Assembly (NCBI RefSeq): GCF_026571515.1
Contig: NW_026858498.1
Span: 310,001-374,000, forward strand
DNA: 64,000 nt
From: Ruditapes philippinarum
Lineage: Eukaryota
Reading direction: 5' to 3'
The notes under the pieces: model-generated
The model's input: the letters and a program-made list of their open reading frames with translations, nothing else
What the model was told of the DNA's origin: nothing
The model's database searches: none
Shown: positions 10,356 to 48,472 of the stretch, piece after piece
Position numbering within the stretch: position 1 is the stretch's first letter
Layout: every line of letters begins with the position of its first letter
Position numbers and translations under genes: made by a program

Positions 10356-10415
10356 TGGTCCTTGTTACAGGGTCGTATTGAACGCCGCCTATCCTTGTTG
10401 ATCTTGTTTACCATA
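10356..10415 (+). mobile_element. short 3'-end fragment of the Penelope-like element
   Basis: TTGAACGCCGCCTATCCTTGTTGATCTTGTTTACCATATT matches the 3' terminus at 34775-34813. Confidence 0.75.
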
Positions 10416-12579
10416 TTTTATTTATTATTTTGGGCTTACAAAGGATTTTGATAAACTGAACAAAATAAATAGCTTTCATAATATTTTATGAATCCTTGAC
10501 CGCATTATATAAATAATACCAATGGTTTTAATTTCATGAAATTTTACAAACAAAACCTATATTTGAAAAAAAAGATAATGGTAGTATTTGTTATTTGATG
10601 ATTATTAGAAAGATGTAGACAATAGTCATATATGTAAAGCATAAATGAGAATGATAATAGTTCAGAATCATCTTAACGGATATAAGATTCTAAATGTAAG
10701 AAATTTAAAAATCTCCGGATTTGTATTGGTTGCCAATAATTTGACAATGCCCAAAACCATTACAACACAAACTATATGATTTACATTGATTTACATATAT
10801 ATAGTTTTTGAAAATTTTATTGACTTTATTGACTGCTTTAAATGTAGATTTAATTCGTCACGTACAAAACAGGCTTTAGCAATCATGTAACATTTCGTTG
10901 ACAAGAAAGTGTAGTTCTTAGGTATAAGATTGTTACAAAAAAATATGTATGGAATATAAACATCAAATATAACTGTTTAAATATAGAAGAAGGGGTTTAC
11001 TGTTCATTCTTTTGTTGCTTACAAATCATTCATAGACAGTAGTTAGTTCTTAAAGTACACATATTCGAAACAGATGAAAGCACCTACGTCATAATATGAA
11101 ACACATTCATTGACAGTTGCAACGTCAATAATAATTATGAAGATTTAAATATCATAGGAAATAATTTTCTAAAAATATTTTGTTTTTATTTTTCATTTTT
11201 CTAGTTTATTAATTGGATATCTTTGTTTTCTAAATTAATCTTGAGTATATTTCTTTATTATTATTTTTCTATATGTTTCCGATTTAGGTGTCTGAGTTGA
11301 TCTCTGTTAAGTTGATCTCTGTAATATTTTTTACAATGTTTATAATTATTGGCATTTGGACCTCATTGGACCTCCTTTAAGAGCATTTCATTTATCATTA
11401 TGACTTTCGTTTTTTATTTTTCCTTTTAAGAGAACCATTCATAGACTATAATAACATAACAGCCACGTCAAATATAAAAAAAATACAATTTCATATATTT
11501 CATTTCTGTCTTGATCTGATCTATATAAACAGATAAATTGTACATGATCATGTACCAATTAATATGTATCGTTTGATATATAATACATTATGTACACTTA
11601 TTAATATATTATGAAATAGTTAACATGATCATTCCCAAATGAACAGTCCTTCAAATTACTAAAATAACCAAATTATTCATGAGATTTATATGACTGTATA
11701 GAGTTTATGATCAATAAAAAATGTTTCAGATGAAACATCAGTAATAATATCCATTTTAGTTGTATGTTACAATGTTTAGCAAAGTATTTTGACATATAAG
11801 ATAGGATATCAATGCAATCAGTATGGTATTTCTAATTCATCATGATACTTTGCAGAAAGTAATTTGATAAATTGAGGGTTTATCTCTTTCTGATTCCGAG
11901 CATTTAATACATGACTTTCACAGATAAATTTGACATACCAGCTGCAGTTTTTCTTCTTTAAAAGGAAATAAAAGGTCAAAGCAGTTTTAAACCAATATAC
12001 GATTACGTTATTTTCATAAATTTGATTGTAAATTTTCTTTCAGCGTTTTTTAAATTTCATTAGCTAAAACAGTAAATACTTAAATTTCACTTCATTGCAT
12101 TGCAAACTGAAATCAAAAAAATTCCACGTTGTATAGTTTCCGGCATAAAATTATTTAAACCCGACCTTAACCATTAAATTATTTCGACCGAAATAGTATA
12201 AACTTCCGATTCCGTCCGCAATTATTCCAGCATAGTTTAACCTTTGTTATTGTCGAAAATAAATAAAATAAAATCGACACTTAAAGCACTTTTCTTGAAG
12301 GAGATGCTTTATTTACTAATAATATATAAAGATTGTTAAAAGCCTCCATTAAAAGTAAATAGATATAAATCCGTTTCTGTTTACGTCATATGATTACCTG
12401 TGCCAATTTTGAGAAGGATTTTCTGTTTCAAATTTTTATTTTAATAATACATAACTTTAGGTGTATCATTTTAAATACCTTTTATCGTAAAAAGTTGCCT
12501 TTGGTGAATACATTCTCTAATAAATTGCCTAACGCGTCATGTTTCAGTAATTAGCACACACATTTAATAAACACATGAA

Positions 12580-22431: not shown

Positions 22432-23380
22432 ATATGATAAACAAGATCAACAAGGAAAGGCGGCGTTCAATGAACGCAACCCCCACACGACCCAGCAACA
22501 AGAACCAATGGCAAGGAGCCCAGGGGGACCCCAAACAAAAACAGGACAGGGCAAAGACAGAGCACGGACAGGTTAATCATTAAATGATAATTAATTTGTA
22601 ACTGATTAGGAATTCAAAGAAAATAAAAATAGGCCCACAAAGGGGAAGGGGACAGGAGACCGGGGGAGGGGGTGGGGAGTAATCAAAGAAATAAAAACTA
22701 GAGGCAATGGGGAAGATACTTACCGTAGACGAGAAAACAACAAGGGACACAAGCAAAAGTGTCACCAAAACAGTATGAAACAACAATAAGACATACATCT
22801 GAGGAACACAGTGGGGCGCCGCCTTGGAACGGTCAGCAGCATAATAATGACTGCTGGGGAGTTTAAAACCGGTTAATGGTGCACCAAAACCTCGCTCTTA
22901 GCCCCATCATGTTCCTATAAACGAGACAGTGTAAATAAAATGAATCCCCGCCAAGTGAAATTCTAACAGTTGTCATGGTTACAAAAGGTTAAATAAGTAA
23001 AACACTAAAATGATCATGTAGAAACATATAAAAGTAAACCCAATGACCATAACAAAAGTACTCAATGTCCTAAAGGAAGACAGAGCAACAAGAAAATCAC
23101 CTACAAGGGCCCGACGAAGCAAGGCAGAAGACGAACATTAAGACAATTCAGTCCCAAAGGGCTTTACGAACTATCCATCATAGAGTCTCCCACTTGGTCC
23201 GTCAGATGCAATCAAAAGAGGAAAGCGTAGTGTCCAACTGTAAAAGGGTTGAACACTAAACATGCAGTATGTCTTAAAATAGTAGGGTCATAACCTCTTT
23301 TAATAAAACGTTTAATGATTTTAGTAAAAACAGCAGAAAATTTACCATGACCCAAAATCTTACGAAGTTTGTAAATCACA
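22432..23380 (-). mobile_element. 5'-truncated Penelope-like retroelement (Naiad-type), copy A
   Basis: Reverse complement of ~33885-34813 with few differences; encodes the RT C-terminus VIYKLRKILGHG..KRGYDPTILRHTACLVFNPFTVGHYAFLF*. Confidence 0.9.
23127..23190 (-). promoter_or_regulatory. SECIS-like stem-loop (type II) in Penelope-like copy A
   Basis: Identical to 34073-34136 on the opposite strand. Confidence 0.6.
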
Positions 23381-23390
23381 AACTATGTTT

Positions 23391-23526
23391 ATGTCATTTT
23401 CTTCTGATAACATGATAAGCTGACCAAAGACATTGCCAGTGGCCTTAACTTCAACAAGATTGTTTATGTCACTTTCTTAACGTTCTTTGTATCGGCAAAG
23501 GTTTTTCAGTTTTGCATAAAAACAAA
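23391..23526 (+). repeat. 136-bp duplicate of 23934-24069
   Basis: Two mismatches; lies directly at the 5'-truncation junction of Penelope-like copy A. Confidence 0.9.
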
Positions 23527-26500
23527 GTAATATCATAACATTAGTATCAGGATATCGTACAATTATTGCTTTGTCATCATTTTCAGCCGCATGTAACATA
23601 TGTAGCATAATTCTGGTATCGGCTTCCTCCTGAGACATATGTAGATCTGGAATCGGTATTACTTCTACTTTTACATCTTTACTTTGGAGGCATACACATG
23701 TCTCTTCACAAGCACAAGATTCTCCTTCCGTCCAATTTCCCTGCATATTTATTTTTAGACAATTCTTCTAATATCAATCTTATGTTTTTGTTACCTGGCC
23801 TCTGTTCATTGTATATTCGCCTCCGAGATCATGCATTAGTTTTGCCTTAGCAGTCTTTGTTGGTAAAACATCTGCTGTAGCTAGAGACCAAGGCACTGGT
23901 CCAAGCGGGTACGTTAGGGTCTTTTCAAGGATAATGTCATTTTCTTCTGAAAACATGATAAGCTGACCAAAGACATTGCCAGCGGCCTTAACTTCAACAA
24001 GATTGTTTATGTCACTTTCTTAACGTTCTTTGTATCGGCAAAGGTTTTTCAGTTTTGCATAAAAACAAACAGTTTTATCCACCAGACGTTCTTTGGGGAG
24101 CTTTTTGTGTGCTTCAAGTCCATTTCGGTAGGTATCAAACAGACTCTGGTGCAGGATCCCCTGAACTTAAACAAATAAAAACATCCCAATTATCTGTTGC
24201 AAATGAATTCATAAAGTTAGTTATTGATTATTTGAGTTTCGTGACATTTTTTTTCAAATGCAGCTATATTTGCTGGTTGTGTATCAATGTGTGTAGAAGA
24301 ATCCGCTGATATGCCGGCCATGCGGAATATAGCCTCAACATAGCTTGATCTCGAGTGTTGTGTTTGACTCCATCTGTAGTAGGCAGCAAAGTTTCTGCTG
24401 CCAATCCTATTATGCCTCAACGAGACTTTGCACATCTGTTTATTATTTGCTCAATACATTGTAGTTATATTAACAGCATTACAGAGCCAGGCACATTGGA
24501 TCTGCTTACACTGAAACCGTTATTTTGAAGAAGCTTTCTTGATCCGGTGTGTTGAATCATTTATTTATCAACATAAGAACATATACAGATAGATATTTTG
24601 CATAATTTTGATGATCATATGCAAAGAATAATTGTAGCATATTTTATAATGTTGATATGTATAGGTCAAGATCATTTTCCTTCGTTGCTCTCATAAAACA
24701 AAGAAGCAGCCAAATCTTAACAATAAATCCCTTCAAATCTGTGCTGTCTTCCCGAAGTGACCTTTTCCGACGTCTTCCTTGAACTCTTGATACCTCTTGT
24801 AAAGTACAATGACAGAATCATTAGCTAACACATCTTCAAGGTGTTCACGTCTTTGATTCTCAGCTAGCACATTTAAAGCTTGGTTGATATCTTCCAATGC
24901 ACTAGAGTTGTGGATTTGGATAACTAGTGCTACAAAATCTTCAAAAAGCAATCTTTCAAGAGCTTCAACTGTAAACACATTAACACATTCACTCTTCTCT
25001 ATCAGGATTTCTGAGAAACCACTTCCACGAAGCCGTTTGCCAATCGCCCCTAGGTATGAACCTAGCAAACGAAAAGCCCCTAAATGTATGATAGTATCAC
25101 TGTACTTAGTCGGATTTTCCATACTGTAGAATATGCCTTTTAGCAGCGGCCAAATCAAAGGTCACAAATGTGTATTGTTGGTTTACAGCTCTTGAAACAC
25201 TTGAAATTTCTAGAATTTTCTTAACAGTTGCATTTTTTTGTACTTTGGGCAATTAAAGTACATTGGTAGACATGTACTCTTCTGTAGAAGATGTTTGATC
25301 ATGCAACTCAGAGGTTAGAGAGATCTAGCCAGTCCAACTTGGAACAATCTGCTTGTCATGTACACATGAACCAGAGAAAGTCAGATGAAACAGCAAAACC
25401 TGAAACATTTCCTTTGTCGAAACTTATAGGTATTGATAAATGGTTCTTATTTCCCAGTAATTAAGCATGCAGCTAATTCTTCAGGATTGTATTTAACAGT
25501 GCATGCGTTAGTCGCCTGTATATTTGATATATTAGTGGATGTTTGTTCTCTTTTAGTGTCATCATCATCATCATCTTACGGCTGTTCTCTCAAAACAATT
25601 TTGTGCGCAGTATGGGTTGTTATTTAGATGGATTAGATGGAAATGGTCTCAGCACAAATTTGTTATCAAATTGCTTTTACAGAAATTGTATCAGGGAGAA
25701 CAATGTCCCGATAAAGAGTACCTTTACACAGTTTCAAACTCCAAATCTGAGAGGAGTATGACTGACAATGTCCGAAATGTTTCATCAGTGTCTTATGCTG
25801 TCATATGCTGTGTTGCATTTCAATAAAGATTTATTCAACAAAATTACTCTTAAACAATTGATTTTAAGGGAAAAACATACTATTACTAAAGCATACTATT
25901 ATCTGCTTTTTTTCTAATGGCGCAATGAAAATAGGGGAAGTAACTTTATAATGTTTTTTTAAAGGGCAGTAACAATGATAATGAAATTTAATACATTAAT
26001 CTCAGTTTTTTTTTCTAATAATAATAAAAAACTACCAACAAAAGGCTTAAGTCATTTTAAATAAAATAAGAGTAAGAACAGTTTCCTTTGGTGGAACTCA
26101 ACGAGCAGCCTTTGTCAAATAGTCATTGTGGTGCGGGTAAGCTCTACAATTCATTATAGTCATATGGATATACAGAAACAGAACGGAACGGAGAAGTCAA
26201 CTACCAACTTTTCAAATTGTTTTTCATATAAGTGAGAGTATATTAAGTTTCTAGAGAGGACAAAAAGTCAATATTCGCATGAAATTCAATTAAAAGTATC
26301 TTATGGAACTTTAAAGGCAGCTCAAATCGACCCCAAATATTTATGGTTCATATCTCTATAAAATTGAAATAATATTCAAGAGCACAACATTTAAAATTCT
26401 ACCTAGAATAGAGTTAGTTTCACTAAGCATATCATATATAATTAATAATTACATCAAACCTTGTATAAATGGATTTAAACACATTAAATATTGTTATGAA

Positions 26501-31974: not shown

Positions 31975-33520
31975 TTAACAAATGTACGTATGAAGCTATA
32001 ATCGGATTATTCAGTGTTAAATTCTGCAATTTTGCTTTTGTAGTTTTTCATTTATTTTATTTTCATTATATCATATAATTAGCTCTTTCATCTTTGTTGA
32101 TAAAATTTTGTAATAGCCACCAGAGGCATGTTTTGTTATACATAATGTTTATATTGTTAGCTCCTAAATTGTTTTCTCAAACATCGTAGCACAACTGTAA
32201 CATTTATTATACTACAAGAGTGGTTTGTTGAGAATTGCTTTTATTTTCAACTTTAAAGATTTACCAAACCACTAGACATACCTTCGTATAAAACACATTT
32301 ATAATTACTTACCAAGTTCTAATCTCTAAATGAATGTAAAATGTAGATGCAAAAGAAAACACTCTTAGTCTCTTTATTTCTCAAACATTAATTATTTTAA
32401 AAAATGTGAATGTTTTTCTTGACCTATTTTAAATATGTTCATGTTTATGTCTTTTATTTTTCTATCAAGCTACATAGAAATGTCAATGAACAACAGTTAT
32501 ATACTGCAGTTCTATATTGCAAAACTTCTTGAGACTGATGTTCAACTATTTATTACAAAATGTCTGGTGTTTTACCCTTCGGGAAGCTATAATGTCCATG
32601 ACAAATGATGGCCAGACCAACAAAAGGTTACAAAACGGGCAAGTATTAAACTATTGTGTCCAGAATAGCCTTTTATGTACAAACTTAAGTAAAAAGGAAC
32701 ATAGGACTTATCATGACATAGACCATTCTCATTTACTGGTGGTATAAACCTGTTATCCTCTATTCACTTTTTAGGCAAAGAAATATCTTGAAGATAAAGT
32801 GCATATACAAAATTTTGCTGTTTTTGTTCTGCAAGTGTGCGACATTGTATCAATTGCAAATGTTTCCTTCTACAAATATGAGTTGTTTATCTTTTTTGAA
32901 ATAAACAATAGAAATGTTAATTAAAACATTTTTAATAATCAGTTTGTGTTGTAGTACGTTCACAGTTGAAAGTAAGTAATTAAAGGTCCATTACGCCCCA
33001 GAAATCCCAAACTTTCTTTTCTATTTCTCAAACACTGTTTATTTTGGTATCTTGTGACAGTTTCCAAAACCGTACTCATTTGCTGTATACAATTTGCATA
33101 TTTAGTTCTATTGCCAATTGATATAATTATAGTGAATGAGTATTTTGTATGGAAGTCAAAATACTACTTTGTTTACATTTTGCTACCTTCACTCAAGAGT
33201 GATGAAGTCAAAACTGGCGACTAGGTTGAAAGAGTCTGTTCATAAGTGATAATTTAAAATGCAAAGTTTCTCACTTCCAATTGAAGCAACCTAAAATATT
33301 ACTCAATCTTAAACAAAATAAAGCATATCGAATCTAAAGAAATATTGATATGATGATCTATACATAAAAGAAAGCAAGTTTTAATTTTAGGAATTTGATA
33401 ATACAAGCAGATAGTTTATGACATTTGATCATATATATACGAGTATGTATTATTAGTTAAACTACAACTTAATAAAACGAACTATAACTTAATAAAACGA
33501 ACTCTTGAAATTTTAGTATA

Positions 33521-34051
33521 TCATTTTTAGATTTTCATATTACTATCAACAACAATTCTATTCACACGAAAATCTTTTATAAAAGAGATGAATTTGACTT
33601 TTGTATAGTTAATTATCCCCATTTAGATGGAGACGTACCCCATGCAACATCTTACGGGGTGTATGTTTTTCAGTTAATTAGATTCGCTAGAGCTTGTAAA
33701 GGATTTCAACCAGCGGATATTTTTTTTACCAGCAAACTTCTAAAACAGGACTACCGCTATCATAAATTACGGAAATATGTTACTAAATTTTACAATCGTA
33801 ACTTTGATTTAATTTCTAAATTCAATAGCGATTTAAAAACTATTCTGCGACAAGGGATTAGCCAGTCTGGTTTTTATGGCAATGTGATTTACAAACTTTG
33901 TAAGATTTTGGGTCATGGTAATTTTCCTGCCGTTTTTACTAAAATCATTAAAGGTTTTATTAAAAGAGGTTATGACCCTACTATTTTAAGACATACCGCA
34001 TGTTTAGTGTTCAACCCTTTTACAGTTGGACACTACGCTTTCCTCTTTTGA
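33521..34051 (+). pseudogene. Penelope-like reverse transcriptase C-terminal/thumb fragment
   Basis: Open frame SFLDFHITINNNSIHTKIFYKRDEFDFCIVNYPHLDGDVPHATSYGVYVFQLIRFARAC..; resembles the PLE YDKRDDF..YGVYISQLIRYARAC motif. It ends with no C-terminal GIY-YIG domain, consistent with the N-terminal-endonuclease Naiad/Chlamys group. Confidence 0.85.
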
Positions 34052-34072
34052 TTACATCTGACGGACAAAGTG

Positions 34073-34136
34073 GGAGACTCTATGATGGATAGTTCGTAAA
34101 GCCCTTTGGGACTGAATTGTCTTAATGTTCGTCTTC
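34073..34136 (+). promoter_or_regulatory. SECIS-like stem-loop (type II) downstream of the RT ORF
   Basis: Helix I GGAGAC/GTCTTC; ATGA core at 34082; helix II GGATAGTTCG/TGAATTGTCT (10 bp including G-U pairs); AAA at 34098-34100; apical mini-stem CCC/GGG; 3' core TAAT instead of TGAT. Confidence 0.6.
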
Positions 34137-35090
34137 TGCCTTGCTACGTCGGGCCCTTGTAGGTGATTTTCTTGTTGCTCTGTCTTCCTTTAGGACATTG
34201 AGTACTTTTGTTATGGTCATTGGGTTTACTTTTATATGTTTCTACATGATCATTTTAGTGTTTTACTTATTTAACCTTTTGTAACCATGACAACTGTTAG
34301 AATTTCACTTGGCGGGGATTCATTTTATTTACACTGTCTCGTTTATAGGAACATGGTGGGGCTAAGAGCGAGGTTTGGTGCACCATTAACCGGTTTAAAC
34401 TCCCCAGCAGTAATTATTATGCTGCTGACCGTTCCAAGGCGGCGCCCCACTGTGTTCCTCAGATGTATGTCTATGTTGTTTCATACTGTTTTTGTGACAC
34501 TTTTGCTTGTGTCCCTTGTTGTTTTCTCGTCTACGGTAAGTATCTTCCCCATTGCCTCTAGTTTTTATTTCTTTGATTAACCCCCCTTCCCCCGGTCTCC
34601 TCTCCCCTTCCCCTTTGTGGGCCTATTTTTATTTTCTTTGAATTCCTAATCAGTTACAAATTATTTATCATTTAATGATTAACGTGTCTTTGCCCTGTCC
34701 TTTTTATGTTTGGGGTCCGCCTGGGCTCCTTGCCATTGGGTTCTTGTTGCTTGGTCATATGGGGGTTGCGTTCATTGAACGCCGCCTTTCCTTGTTGATC
34801 TTGTTTATCATATTTCATAATTCTTGTTATACCAAATCCTGTCTTTTAAACATTCTGGCAGGTGATAAGATTAAGCCTAGTCAATTCTGATGTTTTTAAA
34901 AGCAATTTTCATTAAAGAAATAGGTAATAGTATTGTCAAAAGTACGCGTGGAGACATAAGATTTCAGTGTTATTTCGATCAAATATATATGAAGTGCATA
35001 TTGTTATGTTATGGTTTGGTTTTACGTCGTATCAACATAGTAGAGGTCATACTCGTACTATTTCACTTTAAGTTTCTATTATTATTCAGA

Positions 35091-48369: not shown

Positions 48370-48472
48370 CTGTTATGTTTGGTGTCCTGCTGGGCTCCTT
48401 GCCGCTGGTCCTGTGTTGGGGAGGATGAATTCACTGAATAGCCCTTCCTTGTTGATTTTATTTTTCATATTT
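48370..48472 (+). mobile_element. older 3'-end fragment of a related Penelope-like element
   Basis: TGTTTGGTGTCCTGCTGGGCTCCTTGCC..CCTTCCTTGTTGATTTTATTTTTCATATTT resembles 34707-34815. Confidence 0.65.

Follow-up and report, generated by a model that had tools for sequence, protein, structure and literature searches.

We analyzed a window of 64,000 nucleotides of the Ruditapes philippinarum genome (contig NW_026858498.1, positions 310,001 to 374,000 of the forward strand), and coordinates below refer to this whole stretch. It holds two 5'-truncated copies of a Naiad Penelope-like retrotransposon, each carrying in its 3' untranslated region (UTR) a selenocysteine insertion sequence (SECIS) with an altered core. 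Copy 1 (33479-34817, +) consists of the C-terminus of the reverse transcriptase (RT) and the 3' UTR, belongs to the young subfamily A, and is 96% identical to a near-full-length copy (L033) over 1,352 nt. It retains one in-frame UGA within the RT (33506-33508, +), which the original prediction for this locus overlooked, followed by the C-terminal 180 RT codons (33509-34048, +), a terminal UGA (34049-34051, +), and the SECIS hairpin (34073-34136, +). The frame past the terminal UGA stays open for 15 codons, to a TAA at 34097-34099. Copy 2 (22432-23380, −), also of subfamily A, carries the identical 64-mer at 23127-23190 (−). Both copies are truncated products from which no protein is made.

The hairpin comprises helix I, an internal loop, AUGA (34082-34085, +), a 10-bp helix II that includes G·U pairs (34087-34096 paired with 34113-34122, +), an apical AAA (34098-34100, +), and a 3-bp apical mini-stem (34102-34110, +), and the 3' side of its core reads UAAU (34123-34126, +). 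The original prediction had this layout and both positions right; its type II label is marginal for a 3-bp mini-stem with a 3-nt loop, and related elements are called type I in PMC8557442. The SECIS is predicted to sit on an extended basal stem (34053-34164, +), the flanks of which also pair in relatives. Helix I, helix II, AUGA, and the apical AA occur at the spacing of a canonical SECIS. The tandem G·A/A·G core (3' KGAW) is missing, and the element was therefore classed as a variant.

Folding energy alone was weak evidence for a SECIS, with a z-score of −1.70 for the 64-nt hairpin (14 of 200 shuffles folded equally well) and −2.57 for a 91-nt segment. Rfam returned no match in the whole window at its gathering threshold; model SECIS_1 scored the hairpin at 33.0 bits (E = 1.7e-4), slightly below the 35-bit cutoff, and a copy that has G instead of A in the core at 41.6 bits. 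Comparative evidence was strong. A metagenome scan for relatives yielded 61 loci, 20 of which (distinct, with the 3' end present) were aligned with the window and two further copies from the same genome, for a total of 23 sequences. Helices I and II covary in this alignment, as the original prediction had required of helix II: 87.5% of cells pair, double-sided changes occur at 16 of 19 pairs, and the covariation score was 0.613 compared to 0.274 for shuffled alignments (0/500) and a maximum of 0.201 after sliding. We conclude that the hairpin is a genuine SECIS.

The departure from the canonical core lies at A34124 (23139 in copy 2), which is kink-turn position 2n and is usually G. The element forms three subfamilies, A, B (open reading frame [ORF] ~92% identical to A), and C (~80%). 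The proposal that UAAU was shared rather than private decay was borne out, since exact 45-mers in the genome had A at the core site 619 times versus G twice, and A was found in all three subfamilies. A 26-mer with the core site left open had at least 1,357 matches, in keeping with the suggestion that truncated copies scatter SECIS cassettes, and the tally of its first 100 matches was 99 A, one T, and no G. The A core was present in all 26 near-full-length subfamily A copies, in 22 of 26 covering subfamily C copies picked by RT DNA, and in all 30 copies selected by RT protein (the top 30 for a heterologous query, with 150 of 4,737 candidates scored); in one row (L061) the core call is unreliable owing to an inserted base. 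UAAU is thus fixed family-wide and common to the three subfamilies.

Copies with a G core were few (six in one set and eight in another), at a background level of ~0.3-0.6%, and their scatter over A, B, and C is as expected for back mutation; two old ones were tested and neither was basal. An Rfam search of the genome gave an apparent G-core subfamily because Rfam favors G. When these subfamilies were sampled without that bias, the copies had A, and we rejected the reading of the G-core copies as an older canonical subfamily. Outside this genome, 20 of 20 aligned relatives had G, and no row but the window showed A at this position on the 3' side of the core; an automatic check of the 32 metagenome loci that include a 3' end gave no AA core (two miscalled rows read GA in the alignment). 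The published cores are UGAU in Naiad_Mmer (Mercenaria mercenaria) and GGAU in Naiad_Scon (Sinonovacula constricta) (PMC8557442), indicating that A is the derived state. A host-wide drift to AA cores was also rejected. A descriptor scan for host SECIS elements that allowed G or A gave nine candidates in six loci, six with GA and three with AA; all three AA candidates fell in one locus (L377), which also holds a GA candidate matching its paralogue. The better host candidates keep G, and two GA candidates were weakly supported by Rfam; these host elements are predictions only.

Editing of the core A to inosine in the RNA would give a G-like core, and an A at a helix end within a long stem would be suitably placed. 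Contigs from three sequencing runs (one recorded as RNA, two guessed to be RNA) cover the core site with no differing letter, and the core site was not among the rows listed. A retroelement would copy edits into DNA, yet G copies stand at background level, and inosine lacks the 2-amino group of G. We regard editing as very improbable. The contigs were set aside as evidence of expression, because three of four runs were only guessed to be RNA and they show neither expression nor strand.

The element itself has 2,455 candidates in the genome. Near-full-length copies are ~3.9 kb, within the 3.4-4.4 kb of Naiad bodies, and 5' truncation, inverted pieces, and partial tandems (L031, L032, and L035) occur, as is typical of Naiads. 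A single ORF carries a GIY-YIG domain N-terminal to the RT, with a GIQYVG motif near residue 155 and a YLDD RT core toward the C-terminus in L033, L032, and L275. The Naiad motif set of a CX2-5CxxC finger, a KR-rich block, CxC, GxKF/Y, and DKA is present as CNSKRCGCC, RKRKSR, U-D-C, GPKY, and DKA, respectively. Pfam gave no family, so that the assignment rests on these motifs and on published sequences; by this comparison the hairpin sits in the 3' UTR of a Naiad element near the published clam selenoprotein Naiad_Mmer.

An intact genomic copy, L275, has an ATG, 1,057 codons, the UAAU core directly after its stop, and in-frame UGAs at codons 138, 149, 438, 576, and 874. The first four correspond to Cys in five of five distant Naiads, as expected for the selenoprotein-encoding element that had been proposed. 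Conservation of these UGAs among genomic copies was nearly complete, at 67/67 for codon 138 (third base left open) and 66/67, 61/62, and 58/60 for the next three. None has been fixed back to Cys in the family. The bases following the five UGAs are A, A, G, C, and A. Codon 874, in the RT6 region, is the UGA retained in the window and coincides with the fourth UGA of Naiad_Scon (consensus compared by eye). It is TCA in 29 of 30 subfamily C copies, TGA in B, and both TCA (Ser) and TGA in A, and relatives mostly have Ser. This fifth UGA thus likely arose from Ser on the A/B stem, and likely from TCA independently of that of Naiad_Scon.

The terminal UGA is likely a stop rather than a selenocysteine (Sec) codon, as it lies 30 nt from the SECIS core and is replaced by TAA in 5 of 28 subfamily C copies and by TAG in two relatives. 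The original prediction had already considered it too close to be recoded, and a stop was likewise proposed for Naiad_Mmer (PMC8557442). It would end a protein of 1,057 amino acids.

Substitution patterns argue that this ORF was likely translated through its UGAs. Subfamilies A and B, both with UAAU, differ over 1,046 codons by a nonsynonymous rate (dN) of 0.025 and a synonymous rate (dS) of 0.244, a ratio of 0.10; the ratio was 0.083 for the endonuclease region and 0.075 downstream of the last UGA, and the contrast with private changes was highly significant (p = 7e-21). Within A, shared variants comprised 46 silent and 25 replacement changes versus 251 and 523 among private variants (p = 1.7e-7), the excess of private replacements being as expected for dead inserts. 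A and C had a dN/dS of 0.086 at a dS of 1.1 (465 codons). The RT lies behind four UGAs and could not be made without read-through, and a descriptor scan of L275 found no second SECIS. The altered signal likely still works. The original prediction had left open a tolerated variant kink-turn or a lineage losing Sec use; the former is favored, and the latter is not supported, given the lack of reversion to Cys, the likely gain of a fifth UGA, and a dN/dS of ~0.1.

How the variant core might function can be framed by the kink-turn. In kink-turn nomenclature, the 5' UGA supplies L3, G1b, and A2b, and the 3' GA supplies G2n and A1n. The change is G2n to A, converting the A2b·G2n pair to A2b·A2n and retaining the G1b·A1n pair, the unpaired A, the protruding U, and the apical AAA. 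An A2b·A2n pair is isosteric with A·G, and a natural rRNA kink-turn with A·A binds L7Ae in the standard way (PMC3985660). The Thelohania solenopsae Kt-23 and SAM-I G2nA kink-turns have A·A at 2b·2n with G·A kept at 1b·1n (PMC3985660 and PMC3651934); they differ in being rRNA or riboswitch motifs bound by archaeal L7Ae rather than SBP2, with no role in recoding. SBP2 binds via an L7Ae domain (PMC1874613 and PMC8704476), and we infer that a host protein with this domain (SBP2 or SBP2L) would fold and bind the weaker kink-turn, possibly with lower efficiency; the long basal stem may assist in this. Such protein-assisted folding, with continued but perhaps weaker recoding, is in our judgment probable. 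With somewhat more reserve, we favor the wider interpretation that this is a functional animal SECIS without the tandem G·A/A·G core, in which an A·A kink-turn would direct processive recoding of five UGAs, has been kept in three amplifying lineages, and has been swapped as a cassette. The 3' G would then be dispensable, standard finders would miss such elements, and the weaker core might act as a selenium-sensitive throttle on transposition.

Several points weigh against this interpretation. The UGA/GA core has been called invariable (PMC2647825) and required for SBP2 binding (PMC2761289), core mutations (base not specified here) abolish Sec insertion (PMC1802603), and G2nA stops ion-induced folding of an isolated kink-turn, an effect that is rescued in context, unlike that of 1n changes (PMC3651934). 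In our data, the SECIS block shows no more conservation between A and B than the ORF does (differences at 8 of 131 and 102 of 1,250 positions, respectively; p = 0.5), subfamily B has one A·C mismatch in helix II, and codon 874 is Ser in roughly one copy in five (21 among the first 100 of 397). The block has also probably moved between lineages by recombination, and the argument from selection depends on the assumption that a Naiad protein works chiefly on the RNA that encodes it.

The violated core rule and the unexceptional A/B conservation would suit a dead SECIS, in which leaky read-through by near-cognate tRNAs (Cys or Trp) suffices for the few full-length proteins an element needs, and the hairpin is a relic or serves in template recognition. 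Four to five serial UGAs would each have to leak in this case. A change of TGA to TGY would be favored, yet none was fixed, and the likely gain of a further UGA from Ser on the A/B stem runs the opposite way. AUGA, AAA, and the mini-stem, moreover, are the same in all three subfamily majorities. We consider a dead SECIS unlikely and retain the reading of a working variant.

Recombination was suggested by the distribution of differences. The SECIS block of A differs from that of C at only 3 of 131 positions, compared to 24 of 130 for an outgroup (L077; p = 1e-5), and between A and C, 2 of 66 SECIS positions and 66 of 307 UTR positions differ. We withdrew this conservation as proof of selection, because the rates versus B and the outgroup point to recombination. 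Lineages with 20% divergence in the RT share a nearly identical block of ~150 nt, and one copy (L297) is a mosaic, which suggests cassette exchange by template switching. Since the A/C identity is best read as recombination, it gives no grounds for dating the core A to the deep A/C split. The core A is at least as old as the A/B split, because eight sites distinguish the A and B blocks; these flank the core on either side, and two lie within 6 nt.

The probable exchange of the block between A/B and C raises the possibility that UAAU copies are passengers mobilized by the protein of a canonical-core master, in which case recombination would have spread the UAAU cassette late, when most of the ORF divergence had already accrued. 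Fragmentation of the assembly and searches that scored only top candidates (150 of 4,737) would also speak for such a master. The eight A/B differences, including the two beside the core, indicate that A was inherited from the A/B ancestor; the G-core copies are too few and scattered, and not basal where tested; and the top 30 hits of the heterologous RT query were all of this one Naiad family. A passenger origin is therefore doubtful in our view, and we continue with a core that functions in its own right.

Selenoprotein-encoding Naiads have been described (Craig et al. 2021, PMC8557442), and Naiad_Mmer is the closest known relative. It shares the N-terminal GIY-YIG, CxC linker, DKA, and C-terminal RT; UGAs at the first CCHH Cys, the Cys before GIY-YIG, and DKA+8; a terminal UGA closely followed by a SECIS, which overlaps the first stop other than UGA; and, by eye, long identical stretches of peptide and flank. 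In addition to its UGAU core, it differs in helix II sequence, with pairing kept, and in having three internal UGAs. The clam element described here has five, the two extra ones being at the first CxC Cys (Cys in Naiad_Mmer and Naiad_Scon) and in RT6 (Ser in Naiad_Mmer); sites 138, 149, and 576 are the published clam sites, and 438 (CxC) is not one of these. Naiad_Scon has the three conserved UGAs and the RT6 UGA, and differs in its canonical core, UAA stop, and Cys in CxC. About 20 further Naiad sequences from the metagenome loci (L072-L098; 62-79% amino acid identity) have a canonical SECIS right after the ORF. They use Sec unevenly: UGA occurs in the CxC motif of L073, L075, L084, L087, and L089 and in the CX2-5CxxC finger of L075 and L089, sites that were unreported for clams in 2021. 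This widens the Sec-Naiad clade from two published clam families to ~20 related sequences.

Compared to eukaryotic SECIS elements in general (Rfam RF00031; UGAN/KGAW; PMC2647825 and PMC3753652), the clam hairpin has the same helix I, internal loop, AUGA, helix II length, apical AAA, and 3' UTR location, with AA in place of the 3' GA. The sole exception listed in the available part of PMC2647825, GGA/GA, affects the 5' side. The literature searched contained neither a natural UGA/AA SECIS nor a later paper on SECIS elements in Naiads, although single-base mutagenesis of this G in a SECIS may exist outside it. SECISearch3 discards candidates without GA-AG (PMC3753652) and would discard the clam element; if the variant functions, selenoprotein surveys miss some genes. 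The SBP2 recognition rule would also change, and SECIS elements would be tied to the known plasticity of kink-turn position 2n. The family provides a natural exception with >1,000 copies, dated subfamilies, and a selection signal, and the A and G alleles in one genome form a natural one-base pair. The host encodes two tRNA-Sec loci (L288 and L289) and at least five deiodinase-like loci (among L336-L341), four with a single in-frame TGA.

A second conserved, covarying structure lies in the 3' UTR at 34355-34455 (+) and, in copy 2, at about 22810-22910 (−). It is kept in 18 of 61 metagenome loci and in the published Scon and Mmer consensi, and shows double-sided change at 18 of 31 predicted pairs (10 sequences). 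Rfam gave no match to this motif, which is reminiscent of a permuted twister ribozyme. The word "twister" does not occur in the Naiad paper (PMC8557442). Short 3'-end fragments of the Naiad element were also seen at 10377-10416 and 48373-48412 of the window. Copy 2 adjoins a broken ORF region (23391-25161, −) with a 136-nt direct repeat (23391-23526 and 23934-24069), which is perhaps a decayed DNA transposon.
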